Assembly: GCA_041665145.1 (NCBI GenBank)
Contig: JBAYJK010000001.1
Span: forward strand, 229,629 to 293,628
Direction: 5' to 3'
Length of the DNA: 64,000 nt
Origin: Patescibacteria group bacterium
GTDB lineage: Bacteria; Patescibacteriota; Microgenomatia; UBA1406
Part shown: positions 40,412 through 44,733 of the stretch, one piece after another
Layout: each line of letters begins with the position of its first letter
Position numbering within the stretch: position 1 is the stretch's first letter
Notes under the pieces: model-generated
Database searches by the model: none
Seen by the model: the letters and a program-made list of their open reading frames with translations, nothing else
Told to the model about the DNA's origin: nothing
Position numbers and translations under genes: made by a program

Positions 40412-41977
40412 TTAATTAATTTTTTGTGCCGTAACAACAATCCGTATGCTGTTGTCTGCGAAATCACACGTAATGAGTGTCAGTGCCCGATTATCTTTTA
40501 GGATTGCTCCGGTATTGTACTCGTTTACCCGTGCTATATCGGTAACAACAAAGCCGTGGACTGTCTGGTCAATAGTTTTGTAGATCATATCACCTTTATT
40601 CAATTCGACCAGTTTACCGAAGGATCCGGTTGAGTTGTGAGCATAAATAATATTTCCGTACTCAAGCACTTCCCGGTTTCCGATTAGTAATTCTTCGCCG
40701 AGCAATCTGCCCGTATGGAGTAGGGTATGAACATTAATCTTGGGAATATCAAGTGCGACGTTTAATTCGAGAGTGTTGCCGGAGGGCAATTTTGCATGTC
40801 CCTCGGGAGATGCGGATTCTCCGGTTTTCGGAAGTTTTTTGGTTTGTGCACCAAGAACATTGTTGAACGATTCGAGAATGCCTTCAATCAAAGGATTCAA
40901 ATTACTTTCTTCACCGAGAACAGCCGGTGAGCGGGAAGTACTTTCGCCGCTTGCCAATTCTCCTCCACCGGTTCCACCCCACTGAGTCGAGGTACTTGAC
41001 CCTGGTCCAGGAGTTGCGCTCGGGCCCGGTCCAGGAGTAGCTGAAGGGTGTGGTGTTTCTGTTGCTGACGGTCCCGGTATTCCGGTAGCAGTCGGAGTCC
41101 CGCTCGGCGGGATTGTCGGTGTGACTGTCGGTGTTTGGCATGCTGTGTATCTATTGTAAATGACCAATGTCCGATGTGGCCGTTCTGTGTGTAAAACAAT
41201 ATGACCGTCAACATTCATATCCCGTGCATCATCATTAGATGAATCAGAGTCAAAGAGTGTATTGTCATATGGAAACATTGCATTACTTGCCGCCTCTGTT
41301 TCATATTGATCGTTGTAAACAGGATCGGTCCAGCAACCGTTGTCAGGATATGATTCTTCAGTGTAGTAATAATTCCCCATTGGAAGGTTGTAATATGTTA
41401 CGCACTGAGCATCGTTACGTTCGACGGGAGCAAAGTCGGGAAGGTCGGTGTTAAGAGTGAGGGGGGTGGTGAAGGTTGATTGTGGAATTAAACCGTCCGG
41501 GTCTCCCTGCGATGTCATGGGATTCGGAGTGAATCCGCTGATAGTAAATACTGAGCTTGCAGCAAAATTTCCATCATTAACGTTCCCATTAATATCGGCA
41601 ACAACTTTACAAACACGGATTGAACCGAGATTATCCGTCGGCTCGTGTGTTGGGGTTAGTGTCGGCGTCCCGCTCGGCGGGATCGTGGGGGTGGGTGTGC
41701 ATTGTGGTCCACTTGTTGGAGTTGTCGTCGGAGTCACGCTGAGCGTGATTGTCGGAGTAGTAGTCGGAGTTTGTGTTACTGTCGGCGTCGTGGTAGATGT
41801 GGGAATGACCGGTGGTGTTGTAGTTGGGGTTACGCTGAGCGTGATTGTCGGAGTAACAGTCGGAGTTTGTGTTACTGTCGGATACTCTTGCGCGAGTGTC
41901 GCTGATTGGTTCCGTAATTGCAACAACGACAGTAGGAGTAAAAACGTTATTGCGAAACGCGCAAAATAGTTAGCCAT
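40412..41977 (-). CDS. Secreted Thr/Pro-repeat protein with internal LPKTG motif and C-terminal sortase catalytic domain
   Basis: Signal-like N-terminus, PT-rich repeats and a central Cys-containing domain. LPKTG is encoded at 40820-40834. The last ~120 aa have the sortase His (IIYAHNS), Cys (TLITC, Cys codon 40466-40468) and Arg (SIRIVV). Confidence 0.7.
   Translation of the reverse strand: MANYFARFAITFLLLLSLLQLRNQSATLAQEYPTVTQTPTVTPTITLSVTPTTTPPVIPTSTTTPTVTQTPTTTPTITLSVTPTTTPTSGPQCTPTPTIPPSGTPTLTPTHEPTDNLGSIRVCKVVADINGNVNDGNFAASSVFTISGFTPNPMTSQGDPDGLIPQSTFTTPLTLNTDLPDFAPVERNDAQCVTYYNLPMGNYYYTEESYPDNGCWTDPVYNDQYETEAASNAMFPYDNTLFDSDSSNDDARDMNVDGHIVLHTERPHRTLVIYNRYTACQTPTVTPTIPPSGTPTATGIPGPSATETPHPSATPGPGPSATPGPGSSTSTQWGGTGGGELASGESTSRSPAVLGEESNLNPLIEGILESFNNVLGAQTKKLPKTGESASPEGHAKLPSGNTLELNVALDIPKINVHTLLHTGRLLGEELLIGNREVLEYGNIIYAHNSTGSFGKLVELNKGDMIYKTIDQTVHGFVVTDIARVNEYNTGAILKDNRALTLITCDFADNSIRIVVTAQKIN
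41736..41882. repeat. 96-nt-period tandem duplication inside the TP-repeat coding region
   Basis: The 51-nt segment ACGCTGAGCGTGATTGTCGGAGTAGTAGTCGGAGTTTGTGTTACTGTCGG (41736-41786) recurs at 41832-41882 with two mismatches. It encodes PTVTQTPT(V/T)TPTITLSVTP twice. Confidence 0.8.
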
Positions 41978-42090: not shown

Positions 42091-42098
42091 TGTATAAT
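42091..42098 (+). promoter_or_regulatory. -10-like element (TG-TATAAT) positioned as a tRNA promoter for the orphaned tRNA 5' end
   Basis: TGTATAAT at 42091-42098 lies 10 nt upstream of GGAGAGGTGCC (42109). No convincing -35. Confidence 0.35.
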
Positions 42099-42107
42099 TA
42101 CATCTAG

Positions 42108-42119
42108 TGGAGAGGTGCC
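42108..42119 (+). repeat. 12-bp direct repeat, copy 1 (TGGAGAGGTGCC = 1 nt plus the first 11 nt of tRNA-Ser)
   Basis: Identical 12-mer at 42108-42119 and 42469-42480. The second copy is the true 5' end of the tRNA. Confidence 0.85.
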
Positions 42120-42468
42120 GGTCGCCTCCGTCGGCGACCCGCGATTTTGAGCGGGTCGCTTGAATGCGACCCGCCGTTTGAGGCGGGAGTGGTTGCATGA
42201 AGATATGTTTTATTATGTTTATGTACTGAAAAGCGAGAAAGACCACCAGCTATATGTTGGTAAAACTAAGGATTTAAGAAAAAGGTTTAAGGAACACAAT
42301 GATGGGAGGGTACTCGCTACTAAGGGAAGAAGACCTTTTGTCCTGGTTTATTATGAGGCGTTTTCGAATACAACGGATTGTTCGCGCGAGGAACTTTATC
42401 TAAAGTCTGGTATTGGTAGGGAATCTCTAAAGCACAGGCTAAGTAATTTGGACATTATAAATGATAAT
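42120..42468 (+). mobile_element. Putative GIY-YIG-encoding insertion bounded by the 12-bp direct repeats
   Basis: A 349-bp segment between the two repeat copies. It contains a GC-rich hairpin array followed by a small GIY-YIG ORF. Confidence 0.4.
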
Positions 42469-42513
42469 TGGAGAGGTGCCAGAGTGGTTGAACGGGCTAG
42501 TCTCGAAAACTAG
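42205..42513 (+). CDS. GIY-YIG nuclease-family small protein
   Basis: MFYYVYVLKSEKDHQLYVGKTKDLRKRFKEHN (GIY...YVG...R...H) and the YLKSG..RE motif. The ORF only terminates 44 nt inside the tRNA gene. Confidence 0.8.
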   Translation: MFYYVYVLKSEKDHQLYVGKTKDLRKRFKEHNDGRVLATKGRRPFVLVYYEAFSNTTDCSREELYLKSGIGRESLKHRLSNLDIINDNWRGARVVERASLEN

Positions 42514-42556
42514 TAAGGCCGCAAGGTCTTCGGGGGTTCGAATCCCCCCCTCTCCG
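42470..42556 (+). tRNA. tRNA-Ser (anticodon CGA), type II with long variable arm
   Basis: Acceptor GGAGAGG/CCTCTCC, anticodon stem CTAGT/ACTAG with loop CTCGAAA, variable arm TAAGGCCGCAAGGTCTTC and T-arm GGGGG-TTCGAAT-CCCCC, discriminator G. CCA is not encoded. Collinear with E. coli tRNA-Ser. Confidence 0.9.
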
Positions 42557-42714
42557 CATAAAGTCTTCGGTTGCTCCAAGACCCGTCTACTATGCTCGAT
42601 TAGCCCTGTGTGGCTTGCTAAAAAGGCGACGAAAAACGCAAGTATCCCGAACATAGCCTGTAATGTAGAAAATCGCCTAAATGACCCTCAAGGTATTTGC
42701 GCTCGGTTCTAAGC

Positions 42715-43362
42715 TTATACCTGAATAGCAGAAGGGCTACTTTTTACCTCAGGAAATTTAAATTTGACAGCAAATAAAAATAAATAAGTATTTCCTAAAT
42801 AATTATGTTCTTCGAAATTGAACCATTTGTCATAACCATCTGTATAACCCTGTAACTTACCTATAAAATTTTTTCCTATAAAACATTGAATGGATATTCC
42901 TGTTGCCTGATTTGGAATAAGTATATTCTCAATGTTGGTGAATAAACTATCCGGTGTCTTAGTCTTTTTATTTACGAAAAGTTTATCAATTGATGAATTT
43001 ACTAAATTAACACCGATTCCTATTGGAGTCTTCATAAGTAATGTTGGATTTTGAAGGTTGAAATCTTTGCCTTTAAATAAGTCTAATTCTTTCTTACCTG
43101 GAATCGCCATATACTGATTCTGAGGGTTATTTTGAGCCTTAATAATTACCTCTTCTATTACTTCTTTTCCGTTCTTGTGAATGGAAACAGTTTTAAATGT
43201 CAATCTATCGTTAACAGTGTGAAGGCTAAAATGAACATCCACTTTTTTATTGGCGACATTTGTTTTTGGAAGTGAGATGTTAAAATCTTGTCCGTTAATC
43301 AAAATAATTTTTACTAAATTAAAATCATTTACTTTTATTCTCAGAAGATGTTGGATGCCCAC
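42715..43362 (-). CDS. Hypothetical protein
   Basis: 215-aa ORF with no recognisable motif. First gene of the island. Confidence 0.4.
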   Translation of the reverse strand: MGIQHLLRIKVNDFNLVKIILINGQDFNISLPKTNVANKKVDVHFSLHTVNDRLTFKTVSIHKNGKEVIEEVIIKAQNNPQNQYMAIPGKKELDLFKGKDFNLQNPTLLMKTPIGIGVNLVNSSIDKLFVNKKTKTPDSLFTNIENILIPNQATGISIQCFIGKNFIGKLQGYTDGYDKWFNFEEHNYLGNTYLFLFAVKFKFPEVKSSPSAIQV

Positions 43363-43392: not shown

Positions 43393-44733
43393 TTAAATTA
43401 AAAAGAGTTGCCTATCTGTTAGCCTAAATTTTGATGTCACTCCTGCCAATATCTTGATTCTTTCCTCAGGAGTTCCAAATTGGAGAACGTGGAGTAAATA
43501 TTCTTTGAGCATCTCAGTATGAGTTTCACTATATTCTCTCGGGCTTTGTTCGCCTGTATTGTGAGGGGTGATCTCAATTCGAGGAATATAATCACTATTT
43601 ACGTTTGCTTTAAAATGCTGCAATCGTTTTACTTCTACTTCAAACTCTTGCATAAGATAAGAGGTATTAAGTTTTATTTTTGGTAAATAACCAATGAGCT
43701 GTTTGATCAGTTCTTGCTCGGTAATATATGGTTCAGGACAATCGTACCTCTTGATTCTATTGCAGTGATAATAAATGTGTGAGTTTACGATGTTTGCTTT
43801 GGTTCTTCGATATTTTAGTTCAGCAGTGACGCTTCCACCGCATGATCCGCAAATGCAAATTTTCTTGAACGGAAACAGTTGTTTATTCCATTGTCTCGGT
43901 GCAACTTGGAGTTGAATTTGGACTCTTTCAAAGAGTGCTTTTGTAATAAGTGGTTCATATGTCCCTTTGTACCATATATTTCCGTACTGAAACTCTCCGT
44001 AGTAAAAAGCGTTTTGAAGAGCAACGTAGATCTTGCTCAACGGCATCTTGCATCCGTTTTTTGTAGTGAATCCAATATCGTCAAGCCATTTTTTCACCAT
44101 TCGTCCTGAGAATCCCTGATCCGCAACTTTATGAAAAATCTGTTTAATAACTGGTGCTCGTTCAGGATCAAGTTCAACCGTTGAGATTCTATTTACTTTC
44201 AATACATTTCGATAACCTATCGGTGCGACTCCTGGTCTAATTCCAATCTGGCATTTATTCCGAAGTCCTCGTTTAACATTAACACCTCTATTATCATTTT
44301 CCAGTTTTGCTTGTGAGCAAAGAATCATCAGTAAGAATTTCTCGTTGGGATTATCGGTAAACGATTGAGAGTAGGTTTTGATATGGATCAGTTTCCCTTG
44401 ATCCATCAGGTCTACAATTCGCCCCAAGTCTCCAGCATTTCGAGATAACCGATCAGGTGCCCATGTCAGAATACTGTTGTATCTTTCTTCAGTAACGCCA
44501 TGCAGAAGGTTGTTAAACTCTGGTCGTTGTCCTGATTCTTTGGCAGAGTGACTCTCAGTAATTGTTTCCGTAATATTGAGTTTCTCTCGCTTGGCAAGAA
44601 GTTGCATTTCTTTTAGTTGACCATCAATAGACATTGCTTGTCGCTCATCTGATTCGCTCGATTTACGGGCATAGAGGCAGTACTTTAGCCTGATAGTATC
44701 TTTCATCAGGTCACAAGGTACCGCAATAGTCAT
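43393..44733 (-). CDS. Large serine recombinase (resolvase/integrase family)
   Basis: N-terminal catalytic region CLYARKSSESDERQ..SIDGQ. The central recombinase domain and the Cys-rich zinc ribbon (CICGSCGG ... YYHCNR) are typical of large serine integrases. Confidence 0.85.
   Translation of the reverse strand: MTIAVPCDLMKDTIRLKYCLYARKSSESDERQAMSIDGQLKEMQLLAKREKLNITETITESHSAKESGQRPEFNNLLHGVTEERYNSILTWAPDRLSRNAGDLGRIVDLMDQGKLIHIKTYSQSFTDNPNEKFLLMILCSQAKLENDNRGVNVKRGLRNKCQIGIRPGVAPIGYRNVLKVNRISTVELDPERAPVIKQIFHKVADQGFSGRMVKKWLDDIGFTTKNGCKMPLSKIYVALQNAFYYGEFQYGNIWYKGTYEPLITKALFERVQIQLQVAPRQWNKQLFPFKKICICGSCGGSVTAELKYRRTKANIVNSHIYYHCNRIKRYDCPEPYITEQELIKQLIGYLPKIKLNTSYLMQEFEVEVKRLQHFKANVNSDYIPRIEITPHNTGEQSPREYSETHTEMLKEYLLHVLQFGTPEERIKILAGVTSKFRLTDRQLFLI

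Follow-up and report, generated by a model that had tools for sequence, protein, structure and literature searches.

Why does the start of a tRNA gene occur twice within about 360 bp, once at the head of an intact gene and once stranded ahead of a small nuclease gene? The question is raised by a 64,000-nucleotide (nt) stretch of contig JBAYJK010000001.1 from a Patescibacteria group bacterium, here called the window, in which a first-pass annotation had proposed that a GIY-YIG gene was inserted into tRNA-Ser. The reading that we favour, and which we hold with moderate confidence when its mechanism is included, is that positions 42093–42557 are a tRNA-Ser(CGA) locus split by a cassette made of a double hairpin and a GIY-YIG gene of ~82 codons. 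The ancestral −10 box and tRNA nt 1–21 are kept in place, broken after nt 11 by the hairpins and cut off after nt 21 by the nuclease gene, and a second, complete tRNA-Ser(CGA) now supplies the tRNA function. The locus belongs to a class of hairpin-nuclease cassettes that is widespread at tRNA genes of Patescibacteria and of which no description was found in the literature searched (GIY-YIG, tRNA, Patescibacteria/CPR, UPF0213, YhbQ).

Layout of the split tRNA-Ser gene

The exact 12-mer TGGAGAGGTGCC is present twice in the window, at 42108–42119 and 42469–42480. As the first-pass annotation had stated, the second copy is the 5′ end of a complete tRNA-Ser(CGA), which occupies 42470–42557 on the + strand. 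This functional copy is the only tRNA that ARAGORN finds in the window, and it matches the Rfam tRNA family RF00005 with 52.5 bits (E=8e-10). The 64 kb contain no further copy of TGGAGAGGTGCC at one mismatch or fewer. With a chance expectation of 0.14 per window, the recurrence is as improbable as the annotation had supposed, and a chance origin of the repeat was rejected both by this expectation and by the controls at related loci described below.

A second collinear repeat, GAGTGGTTG, is found at 42187–42195 and again at 42482–42490. Since GAGTGGTTG continues the upstream copy past the hairpins, the stub comprises tRNA nt 1–21 with a hairpin module inside. Stub part a (42109–42119, + strand; nt 1–11, GGAGAGGTGCC) repeats 42470–42480 exactly, and stub part b (42187–42195, + strand; nt 13–21) repeats 42482–42490 exactly. 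Together they supply 20 of the first 21 tRNA nt, with nt 12 missing, split by a 67-nt hairpin array at 42120–42186. Interpretation of the stub and hairpins as a tRNA-like structure, or as a split or intron-containing tRNA, was rejected, given that the hairpins have no anticodon or T-arm partners and that the downstream tRNA is complete.

The 12-bp target duplication at tRNA nt 11/12, one of the two options in the first-pass annotation, does not survive this layout. Classical transposition with such a target-site duplication would account for an exact 12-mer on either side of the hairpins and nuclease gene. It is nevertheless very improbable, as the repeat goes on as nt 13–21 past the hairpins and the hairpin lies inside the left repeat copy, not beside it. 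In addition, the upstream repeats of related loci take in 8–36 tRNA nt and as much as 50 nt of the sequence before them, and no transposase is present.

The −10-like box of the ancestral tRNA-Ser gene, TATAAT (42093–42098, + strand), directly follows a TG and stands 10 nt before G+1 of the stub, where it had already been noticed. A two-hexamer promoter and terminator scan of the window made no + strand call; the box escaped it because there is no −35 box. TATAAT probably now drives the nuclease open reading frame (ORF) besides the stub. Judged by its letters, a TATAAA within the ORF tail (42456–42461, + strand) could be a separate −10 box for the complete tRNA. A census of −10 boxes before stubs and full tRNAs across loci gave no signal over the AT-rich background. 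No 3′ tRNA remnant was found downstream of the tRNA in the window.

The nuclease ORF

The stand-alone nuclease ORF (42205–42513, + strand; 102 amino acids (aa)) is single-copy in the window and belongs to the GIY-YIG nuclease superfamily, matching Pfam GIY-YIG PF01541 with E=3e-15 and 56.6 bits (cut-off 22.6). No second Pfam domain was found in the ORF, which consists of the catalytic domain without a C-terminal DNA-binding module. Tyr, Arg and Glu positions Y6, Y17, R27, E51 and E63 are invariant among 26 homologs, and the nearest solved structures are the UPF0213 proteins BH0048 (E=2e-13 with the profile) and EF2693, followed by SLX1. A search of 2.9 million viral contigs for carriage of the ORF returned 3 distant matches only. 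Two proteins encoded in the window, P0001 and P0035, were looked up by exact sequence and gave no entry.

The ATG comes 9 bases after stub part b and 18 nt after the hairpin module. In agreement with the first-pass annotation, the stop codon (TAG, 42511–42513) lies 44 nt inside the tRNA. Homologs have 79–90 aa and cover 75–80% of the query, the window ORF being ~20 codons longer. The conserved part ends near 42450, giving a core of ~82 codons, and the length of 102 aa is due to read-through, with the last ~20 codons crossing the tRNA upstream region and tRNA nt 1–44. The window nuclease gene has no stop codon of its own and reads into the complete tRNA-Ser(CGA). If the ORF and tRNA were on one transcript, RNase P cleavage would take away the stop codon of the ORF.

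An empty site on a syntenic contig

The divergent neighbour of the locus, a sortase-domain gene at 40412–41977, has a homolog with 60% aa identity on a related contig, L115. The gene order of L115 is the same as that of the window, with protein identities of 97% for sigma-70 and 72% for DnaG. Comparison of orthologous tRNA-Ser loci, which the first-pass annotation had proposed as a way to find empty sites, yielded one here: TATAAT, 9 nt and a T are followed in L115 by an uninterrupted tRNA-Ser(CGA) (GGAGAGGTGCCAGAGTGG... / GGAGAGGTGCCAGAGTGGCCGATCGGGCTAGTCTCGAAAACTAG...), beginning with the same G+1. The distance to the sortase-like gene is 133 nt for the L115 tRNA and 131 nt for the window stub. 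Nt 1 of the L115 tRNA stands at the place of the stub, with the same TATAAT before it, which identifies the stub as the ancestral gene start.

The window has therefore gained the hairpins, the ORF and some or all of the downstream tRNA by insertion, or the L115 lineage has lost them precisely, and either course implies mobility. L115 and the window make up one pair showing presence/absence polymorphism at a conserved target, as is expected of homing-type elements. Of the original proposal, the orphaned tRNA start and the insertion of a GIY-YIG gene into tRNA-Ser are upheld by L115.

The sortase-domain protein itself (− strand) has 521 aa, with long Thr/Pro-rich repeats and a C-terminal sortase domain. 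Its repeats give rise to a spurious antisense ORF of 173 aa at 41448–41969.

Related cassettes at other tRNA genes

Homologous ORFs were collected from three metagenomic sets and from 80 genomes, the latter kept of 167 matches; individual loci and contigs are designated by L numbers. Most of the 80 genomes bear the label Patescibacteria or that of one of its candidate phyla. The first-pass annotation had suggested a search of the genome for further copies flanked in this way, and dozens of genomes contain them.

A same-strand tRNA starts at the ORF end in 51/80 genome loci (38 Ser, with all four anticodon groups, and 5 Tyr, plus Gln, Val, Ile, Asp, Thr and Trp). The tRNA density at the ORF end is 15-fold that of the rest of the loci, with none on the opposite strand, and the ORF stop is often inside the adjoining tRNA. 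Of the 47 testable loci, 25 have an exact copy of at least 9 nt, starting from tRNA nt 1–3, no more than 160 nt before the ATG; two controls gave 0/47 and 0/47. Imperfect upstream copies were seen by eye, without a formal count, in roughly a dozen more.

With T denoting the tRNA, the general layout is T[1..X] - hairpin module - T[X+1..Y] - 0–16 nt - ATG...ORF - complete tRNA, where the insertion point X is 8, 12/13, 21/22 or 35/36 and Y−X is 4–14. In the window, which has this layout, X is 11 and Y is 21. A tRNA upstream region with a −10 box precedes both the stub and the complete tRNA in L062, L082, L073 and L017, and in L073 a repeat of at least 85 nt, perfect over the interval examined, flanks the hairpin and ORF.

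Other arrangements were also observed. In L026 (2370–2825) the order differs, comprising a tRNA-Lys stub with hairpin, a complete tRNA-Lys, the ORF, which starts 3 nt after the tRNA, and a 3′ tRNA-Lys remnant broken by a different hairpin. A further group of family ORFs is not at tRNA genes (L021, L028, L032, L034, L039, L043, L048, L051, L066, L071, L072, L080 and L090; around 2470–2800 in most). These are bracketed by inverted arms, ACCCGCCAAAATTT ... AAATTTAGGCGGGT, and have their stop codon inside the right arm, which also supplies the Shine-Dalgarno sequence of the downstream host gene (AGGCGGG or AGGAGG, 4–7 nt before the ATG). The downstream gene of L034, starting MPTINQLIKKGR, is taken to be rpsL-like from our reading of it. 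ORF-less hairpins with ACCCGCCAAAATTT/AAATTTAGGCGGGT arms also occur, three of them in tandem at L080 4702–4803.

L002 (2829) and L006 (371) are 100% identical rightwards from 47 nt upstream of the stub, and their left flanks are unrelated (PPDK in L002, a truncated 2-hydroxyacid dehydrogenase in L006). This breakpoint was rejected as a cassette end, since it lies at the tRNA promoter (−47). Either a rearrangement took place at the tRNA promoter or one assembly is chimeric.

The double-hairpin module

The GC-rich hairpin array at 42120–42186 had been recorded by the first-pass annotation, which gave it no role in the insertion. The array is real, and it is the sole GC-rich hairpin cluster in the 64 kb, folding much better than shuffled sequence (z = −4.3 as DNA, −3.4 as RNA). 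It is however not incidental, being a conserved, covarying module that moves with the ORF. Inverted and direct repeats and folding identify it as an expanded, four-stem form without strand assignment. Its stems are GGTCGCC-TCCGTC-GGCGACC, the alternates GCGACCCGC/GCGGGTCGC, and CCCGCC-GTTTGA-GGCGGG. The internal duplication of the window array is also present in L012.

The commonest form of the module is exactly 30 nt long, with two adjacent 15-nt palindromes NNNGCC-NNN-GGCNNN, and it enters the tRNA without loss of any tRNA base. In 25 distinct 30-nt double hairpins, stem positions 1/15 (CG/UA) and 3/13 (AU/CG/GC) covary and none of 300 cells holds a G-U pair; palindromy was a criterion in choosing the set, which in part accounts for the percentage paired. 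CNA forms loop 1 in 21 of the 25 and TNG loop 2 in 20, and these are mutual reverse complements, so that the module reads alike on either strand. This strand symmetry and the lack of wobble pairs favour a role at the level of DNA. The window array represents a second type, in which GGTCGCC-loop-GGCGACC is followed by CCGCC-loop-GGCGG. This type is also found in L001, L002, L011 and L070, with reverse-complementary loops in L011.

Searches of the window region and 10 related loci against Rfam 15 gave no match for the hairpin module or the stub; only tRNA was found. Extra, ORF-less hairpin copies are present in some relatives (L012, L041, L044, L080), and the window has one module in its 64 kb. 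At L012 66–226, a diverged copy of a tRNA-Arg 5′ end is broken by a canonical 30-nt double hairpin, and the complete tRNA-Arg follows ~45 nt past this copy with no ORF between, an ORF-less derivative of the cassette layout.

What moves as a unit

ORFs with 78–85% aa identity are found at different tRNAs (Ser-TGA/Ser-GCT, Ser-GCT/Tyr and Tyr/Ser-GGA). When cassettes at the same tRNA are compared across genomes, nucleotide similarity begins with the first base of the stub and stops at the tRNA end. Between different tRNAs, it is limited to the stretch from the hairpin to the conserved ORF end, finishing 16–24 nt before the tRNA. The flanks of the compared cassettes are unrelated. As only the hairpin-to-ORF stretch is common across different tRNAs, the hairpin and ORF form one evolutionary unit.

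These comparisons also bear on the proposal that nothing here is mobile now. On that account, the tRNA start was duplicated locally in tandem long ago and then decayed, a host nuclease of Ssn/UPF0213 type owes its place in tRNA operons to the strong expression there, and the hairpin acts in RNA on processing, stability or translation. It would fit an ORF that in every class has a host promoter before it and a host gene after it, also where that gene encodes a protein, the good folding of the hairpins as RNA, and the ORF stop inside the tRNA in many loci, through which RNase P processing would cut the mRNA; the Ssn of Neisseria is moreover regarded as domesticated (PMC11893778). We consider it unlikely, given the presence/absence between syntenic genomes and the occurrence of closely related ORF-plus-hairpin units at different tRNAs with unrelated flanks. 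The 85-nt repeat around the hairpin and ORF in L073, perfect over the interval examined, also speaks against it, as do the strand symmetry of the hairpin and its lack of G-U pairs, which favour DNA, and the existence of ORF-less hairpin copies and tandem hairpin arrays.

Remnants downstream of the full tRNA indicate how much of the tRNA gene came with the cassette. In L033, L042, L070 and L083 they have the form T[X−k..X] - hairpin - T[X+1..end], with k=6–8. In L033, L070 and L083 the hairpins of the two sides match fully or almost fully. L042 has hairpins of different type at different positions (X=21 upstream, X=36 downstream), which look like separate events. The pairing partner of the L033 3′ remnant is the stub rather than the complete tRNA, and in L001 the acceptor strand of the stub misfits the 3′ strand of the complete tRNA. 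The complete tRNA is foreign to the remnants in those two loci, which argues that the cassette brought a whole tRNA gene there. Taken together, the sequences of L001, L033, L042, L070 and L083 favour a whole tRNA having been brought in.

Alternatively, in line with the carried 5′ segment that the first-pass annotation had also considered, the element may consist of the hairpin, the ORF, ~20 nt of upstream sequence and tRNA nt 1–21, the present tRNA being a hybrid of a 5′ end from the element and ancestral nt 22–88 and homing proceeding by break repair via short tRNA homology. The window has no 3′ remnant, and its stub equals the full tRNA over the 20 shared nt. In L068 the stub D-arm differs from that of the full tRNA and the acceptor and anticodon 5′ strands are the same, as expected if only a self-contained 5′ part was exchanged. 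A precedent is provided by mitochondrial mobile endonuclease ORFs, whose carried gene fragments form hybrid genes (PMC3787672). On the other side stand the full-tRNA acceptor stem of L001, coherent in itself and misfitting the stub, the L033 3′ remnant that pairs with the stub, and the long 3′ remnants of L042, L070 and L083. Between tRNA species, moreover, the tRNA-adjoining part is not conserved with the ORF, and the serine-recombinase element directly 3′ of the window tRNA could have removed or displaced a remnant. A hybrid tRNA is thus possible, yet fairly improbable.

In about ten further loci, the last 14–19 tRNA nt are repeated 60–200 nt downstream. A structured spacer follows the complete tRNA in five loci (L029 2125–2308, L030 2847–3070, L061 2860–3061, L045 2863–3040 and L040 1158–1305). 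These spacers, of ~110–170 nt, come after a terminator-like hairpin and begin with the reverse complement of the T-loop and T-stem (GGGATTCGAA...). They hold a conserved CAAACTGCTTTG hairpin and GGAGGAG, and end in an exact copy of the last 14–19 tRNA nt. Rfam returned no match for any of the five.

Proposed mechanism

For the activity and specificity of the nuclease, the order of events, the donor and the transcription of the locus, we infer the following course, on the reading of a cassette that splits the tRNA gene. The nuclease would act like an Ssn, one of the single-domain hairpin nucleases compared below, recognising its own hairpin, probably as extruded or single-stranded DNA (ssDNA), and nicking a few nt outside it. 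As the double hairpin is alike on the two strands, a nick would fall 5′ of it in each of them, and the resulting staggered break would span the hairpin and a few flanking bases. The break would be repaired by copying a donor cassette, comprising the linker, the ORF and a tRNA that is either intact or represented by no less than its promoter and 5′ part. Fill-in and donor copying would duplicate the [tRNA end - hairpin - tRNA start] segment, such as is found in L033, L070 and L083, and a cut near the hairpin would put the ORF 4–14 nt from it, such as is seen in the segmented loci including the window. The outcome would be hairpin-bearing tRNA remnants on one or both sides. We propose that the insertion would be harmless and hard to lose because the cassette brings a replacement tRNA.

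Several observations count against this picture. Empty sites are represented by one contig, L115, which ends in the acceptor 3′ strand and leaves the right-hand junction outside. A second empty site, sought through the DUF5652 neighbour of L033, was not found; contigs with the identical protein are all filled, and in the nearest other relative identified by that neighbour the tRNA is in opposite orientation. The tRNA-derived parts always match the local tRNA, and the tRNA part is therefore not simply carried from host to host. As the window has no 3′ remnant, a whole-tRNA cassette and a 5′-segment replacement are indistinguishable there. In most loci only one side bears a hairpin. The published SRM of Ssn, HGTCWYN(0-2)YYVSBRHN(0-5)WNVSBRGN(0-2)RNCYNB, has no match within 400 nt on either side of 84 ORFs on both strands (shuffled sequence gives a mean of 0.4), and the nearest solved relatives are UPF0213 proteins, not a proven Ssn. 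A hairpin target in a single-copy essential tRNA would be lethal alone, which makes the order of events unclear. The mechanism leaves unexplained the first entry of a hairpin into an essential tRNA gene, the one-sided hairpins, and the renewal of the tRNA part upon a switch of tRNA.

More broadly, these cassettes may represent a new class of prokaryotic mobile element, a proposal we make tentatively and regard as somewhat doubtful. Its sole enzyme would be a hairpin-directed GIY-YIG nuclease of ~85 aa, and the symmetric double hairpin would serve as both recognition site and portable homology arm. Cuts 5′ of the hairpin in each strand would make the duplicated [tRNA end - hairpin - tRNA start] junctions, and the spare tRNA copy would keep the host from losing the element. 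If true, this would amount to an addictive, gene-drive-like replacement of tRNA genes, and would be the first in-genome evidence known to us for transposition of Ssn-type hairpin/nuclease modules.

The adjoining serine-recombinase element

Joined to the tRNA-Ser 3′ end (...CTCCGCA) is the conserved left end of an integrative element (42552–42719), with a large serine recombinase at 43393–44733 (− strand; Resolvase, Recombinase and Zn-ribbon domains, CcrB/XisF-like). An additional ORF of 215 aa (42715–43362) lies between the two in the window. The 165-nt element end is found with 82–95% identity in 21 metagenome contigs. It comes directly after ...CTCCGCA of tRNA-Ser in 14/21, with all four anticodon groups, and the recombinase follows ~100 nt further on in 6/21. 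Another 5/21 have no tRNA in the 1.2 kb examined, the end following a tRNA-like GGTTCCAGACC...GCTCCGCA; these tRNA-less 'GGTTCCAGACC...GCTCCGCA' contigs may be the unintegrated form of the element.

In L097 and L107 the element end follows a duplicated tRNA 3′ end. An insertion of ~125 nt lies there between the tRNA-Ser end and the duplicated ...CCGCTTCCGCA, in which the last ~13 tRNA nt are repeated. The insertion, which includes GGTGGGTTAGC...GGATAGCCC, has no relation to the GIY-YIG cassette.

A 33-mer 3′ of the window tRNA, 100% shared with L011, was considered as part of the cassette and rejected, as it is the end of the serine-recombinase element and is found at tRNA-Ser genes without a GIY-YIG ORF. 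Could the duplicated tRNA start be a by-product of this neighbour? The element targets tRNA-Ser genes and abuts the window tRNA. Its junction is however at the tRNA 3′ end (...CTCCGCA), and no GIY-YIG ORF was found in the 1.2 kb examined beside the element end in any of the 21 contigs, including the 14 with a tRNA-Ser, where this interval lies upstream. GIY-YIG cassettes occur without the element in most of L011–L090. Such an origin is extremely improbable.

Significance

Few uncharacterised nucleases of bacteria are as common as the single-domain GIY-YIG proteins, of which the Ssn enzymes compared below were the first to be characterised. The loci described here show how so small a nuclease cassette can enter essential, single-copy tRNA genes of Patescibacteria, whose genomes are reduced, with survival of the host. 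The empty site, the co-travel of hairpin and ORF, and the clean junctions make the question of Ssn mobility directly testable. For annotation, tRNA stubs, ORFs overlapping tRNAs and ORFs without a stop codon of their own are a systematic feature of these genomes and should not be taken for errors. The many pairs of hairpin and nuclease are candidates for tools that cut ssDNA specifically.

Comparison with known systems

Ssn enzymes (family cd10448; Chenal et al. 2025, Nat Commun, PMC11893778) consist of a single GIY-YIG domain, measure about 94 aa and are encoded by genes with hairpin repeats on their flanks. Binding is to the ssDNA form of the hairpin only and the cut falls a few nt 5′ of it, and SsnA is inactivated by the substitutions Y6A, Y17A and E64A (PMC11893778). 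The authors note an IS-like hairpin-gene-hairpin layout, and leave open the role of Ssn outside Neisseria and its suspected mobility (PMC11893778).

The nucleases of this study resemble Ssn in being single-domain GIY-YIG proteins of about 80–95 aa with Tyr6, Tyr17 and Glu~64 and without a DNA-binding domain. Their genes likewise always lie next to GC-rich, hairpin-forming repeats of 20–50 nt, sometimes on both sides: the module flanks the cassette on either side in L033, L042, L070 and L083, and inverted-repeat arms lie on both sides of the ORF in L021, L028, L032, L034 and others. The Ssn cut a few nt outside the hairpin is comparable to the 4–14 nt (and 6–8 nt) of tRNA kept between the hairpin and the inserted DNA. 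By analogy, an Ssn-like mode of action is probable for the nuclease. The present hairpins are double and strand-symmetric, whereas the NTS of Ssn is directional, and there is one hairpin module in 64 kb compared with hundreds of dispersed copies of the Ssn repeats. The Ssn paper (PMC11893778) makes no mention of tRNA genes, gene splitting or Patescibacteria. With the SRM absent and UPF0213 proteins as the nearest solved relatives, the window nuclease is not filed here as a member of Ssn.

A GIY-YIG core, a selfish gene beside or within tRNA genes, and presence/absence are shared with the homing endonuclease genes of SegB and I-TevI. Enzymes of this type have 200–270 aa with a separate DNA-binding domain, unlike the present nuclease, which is the catalytic domain alone. 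Their genes have no hairpin module and leave no duplicated gene fragment. As with these genes, the insertion point is offset from the presumed cut site. The gene of phage T4 SegB, a free-standing GIY-YIG homing endonuclease, lies in a tRNA cluster (PMC2330249).

In REP/BIME-RAYT and IS200/IS605 systems, as here, a small nuclease gene lies between palindromic hairpins, which are recognised there as ssDNA, and ORF-less copies exist. These systems use HUH/Y1 transposases with covalent intermediates, unlike GIY-YIG enzymes. A GIY-YIG hydrolase is incapable of strand transfer, and host repair would therefore be needed. Integrase islands in tRNA genes also combine insertion with a partial tRNA repeat and keep one intact copy. 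Such islands span kilobases, carry an integrase gene and repeat the tRNA 3′ end, whereas here the 5′ end is duplicated, the insertion measures ~360 bp and no recombinase is present. The insert encodes the nuclease only, in place of the recombinase of its own and the direct repeat of the tRNA 3′ end that mark such islands.

In mitochondria, endonuclease ORFs likewise enter an essential gene, bring a replacement part and leave the old fragment behind. Paquin et al. are said to have described in 1994 such a mobile endonuclease ORF making a hybrid gene, in atp6 of Allomyces. Mobile endonuclease ORFs form gene hybrids in the mitochondria of Glomus (PMC3787672). Genomes with mitochondrial mobile ORFs also hold mobile GC-rich double hairpins, the double-hairpin elements (DHEs) of Paquin et al. 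2000 in the account given by PMC3787672. The mitochondrial cases concern eukaryotic organelles and protein-coding genes with a replaced 3′ end, whereas the present locus is a tRNA gene of a bacterial chromosome, the remnants are from the 5′ end, and the hairpin is integral to the junction. As analogies go, the mitochondrial hybrid-gene ORFs together with the double-hairpin elements are the closest in logic to the cassette that splits this tRNA-Ser gene.

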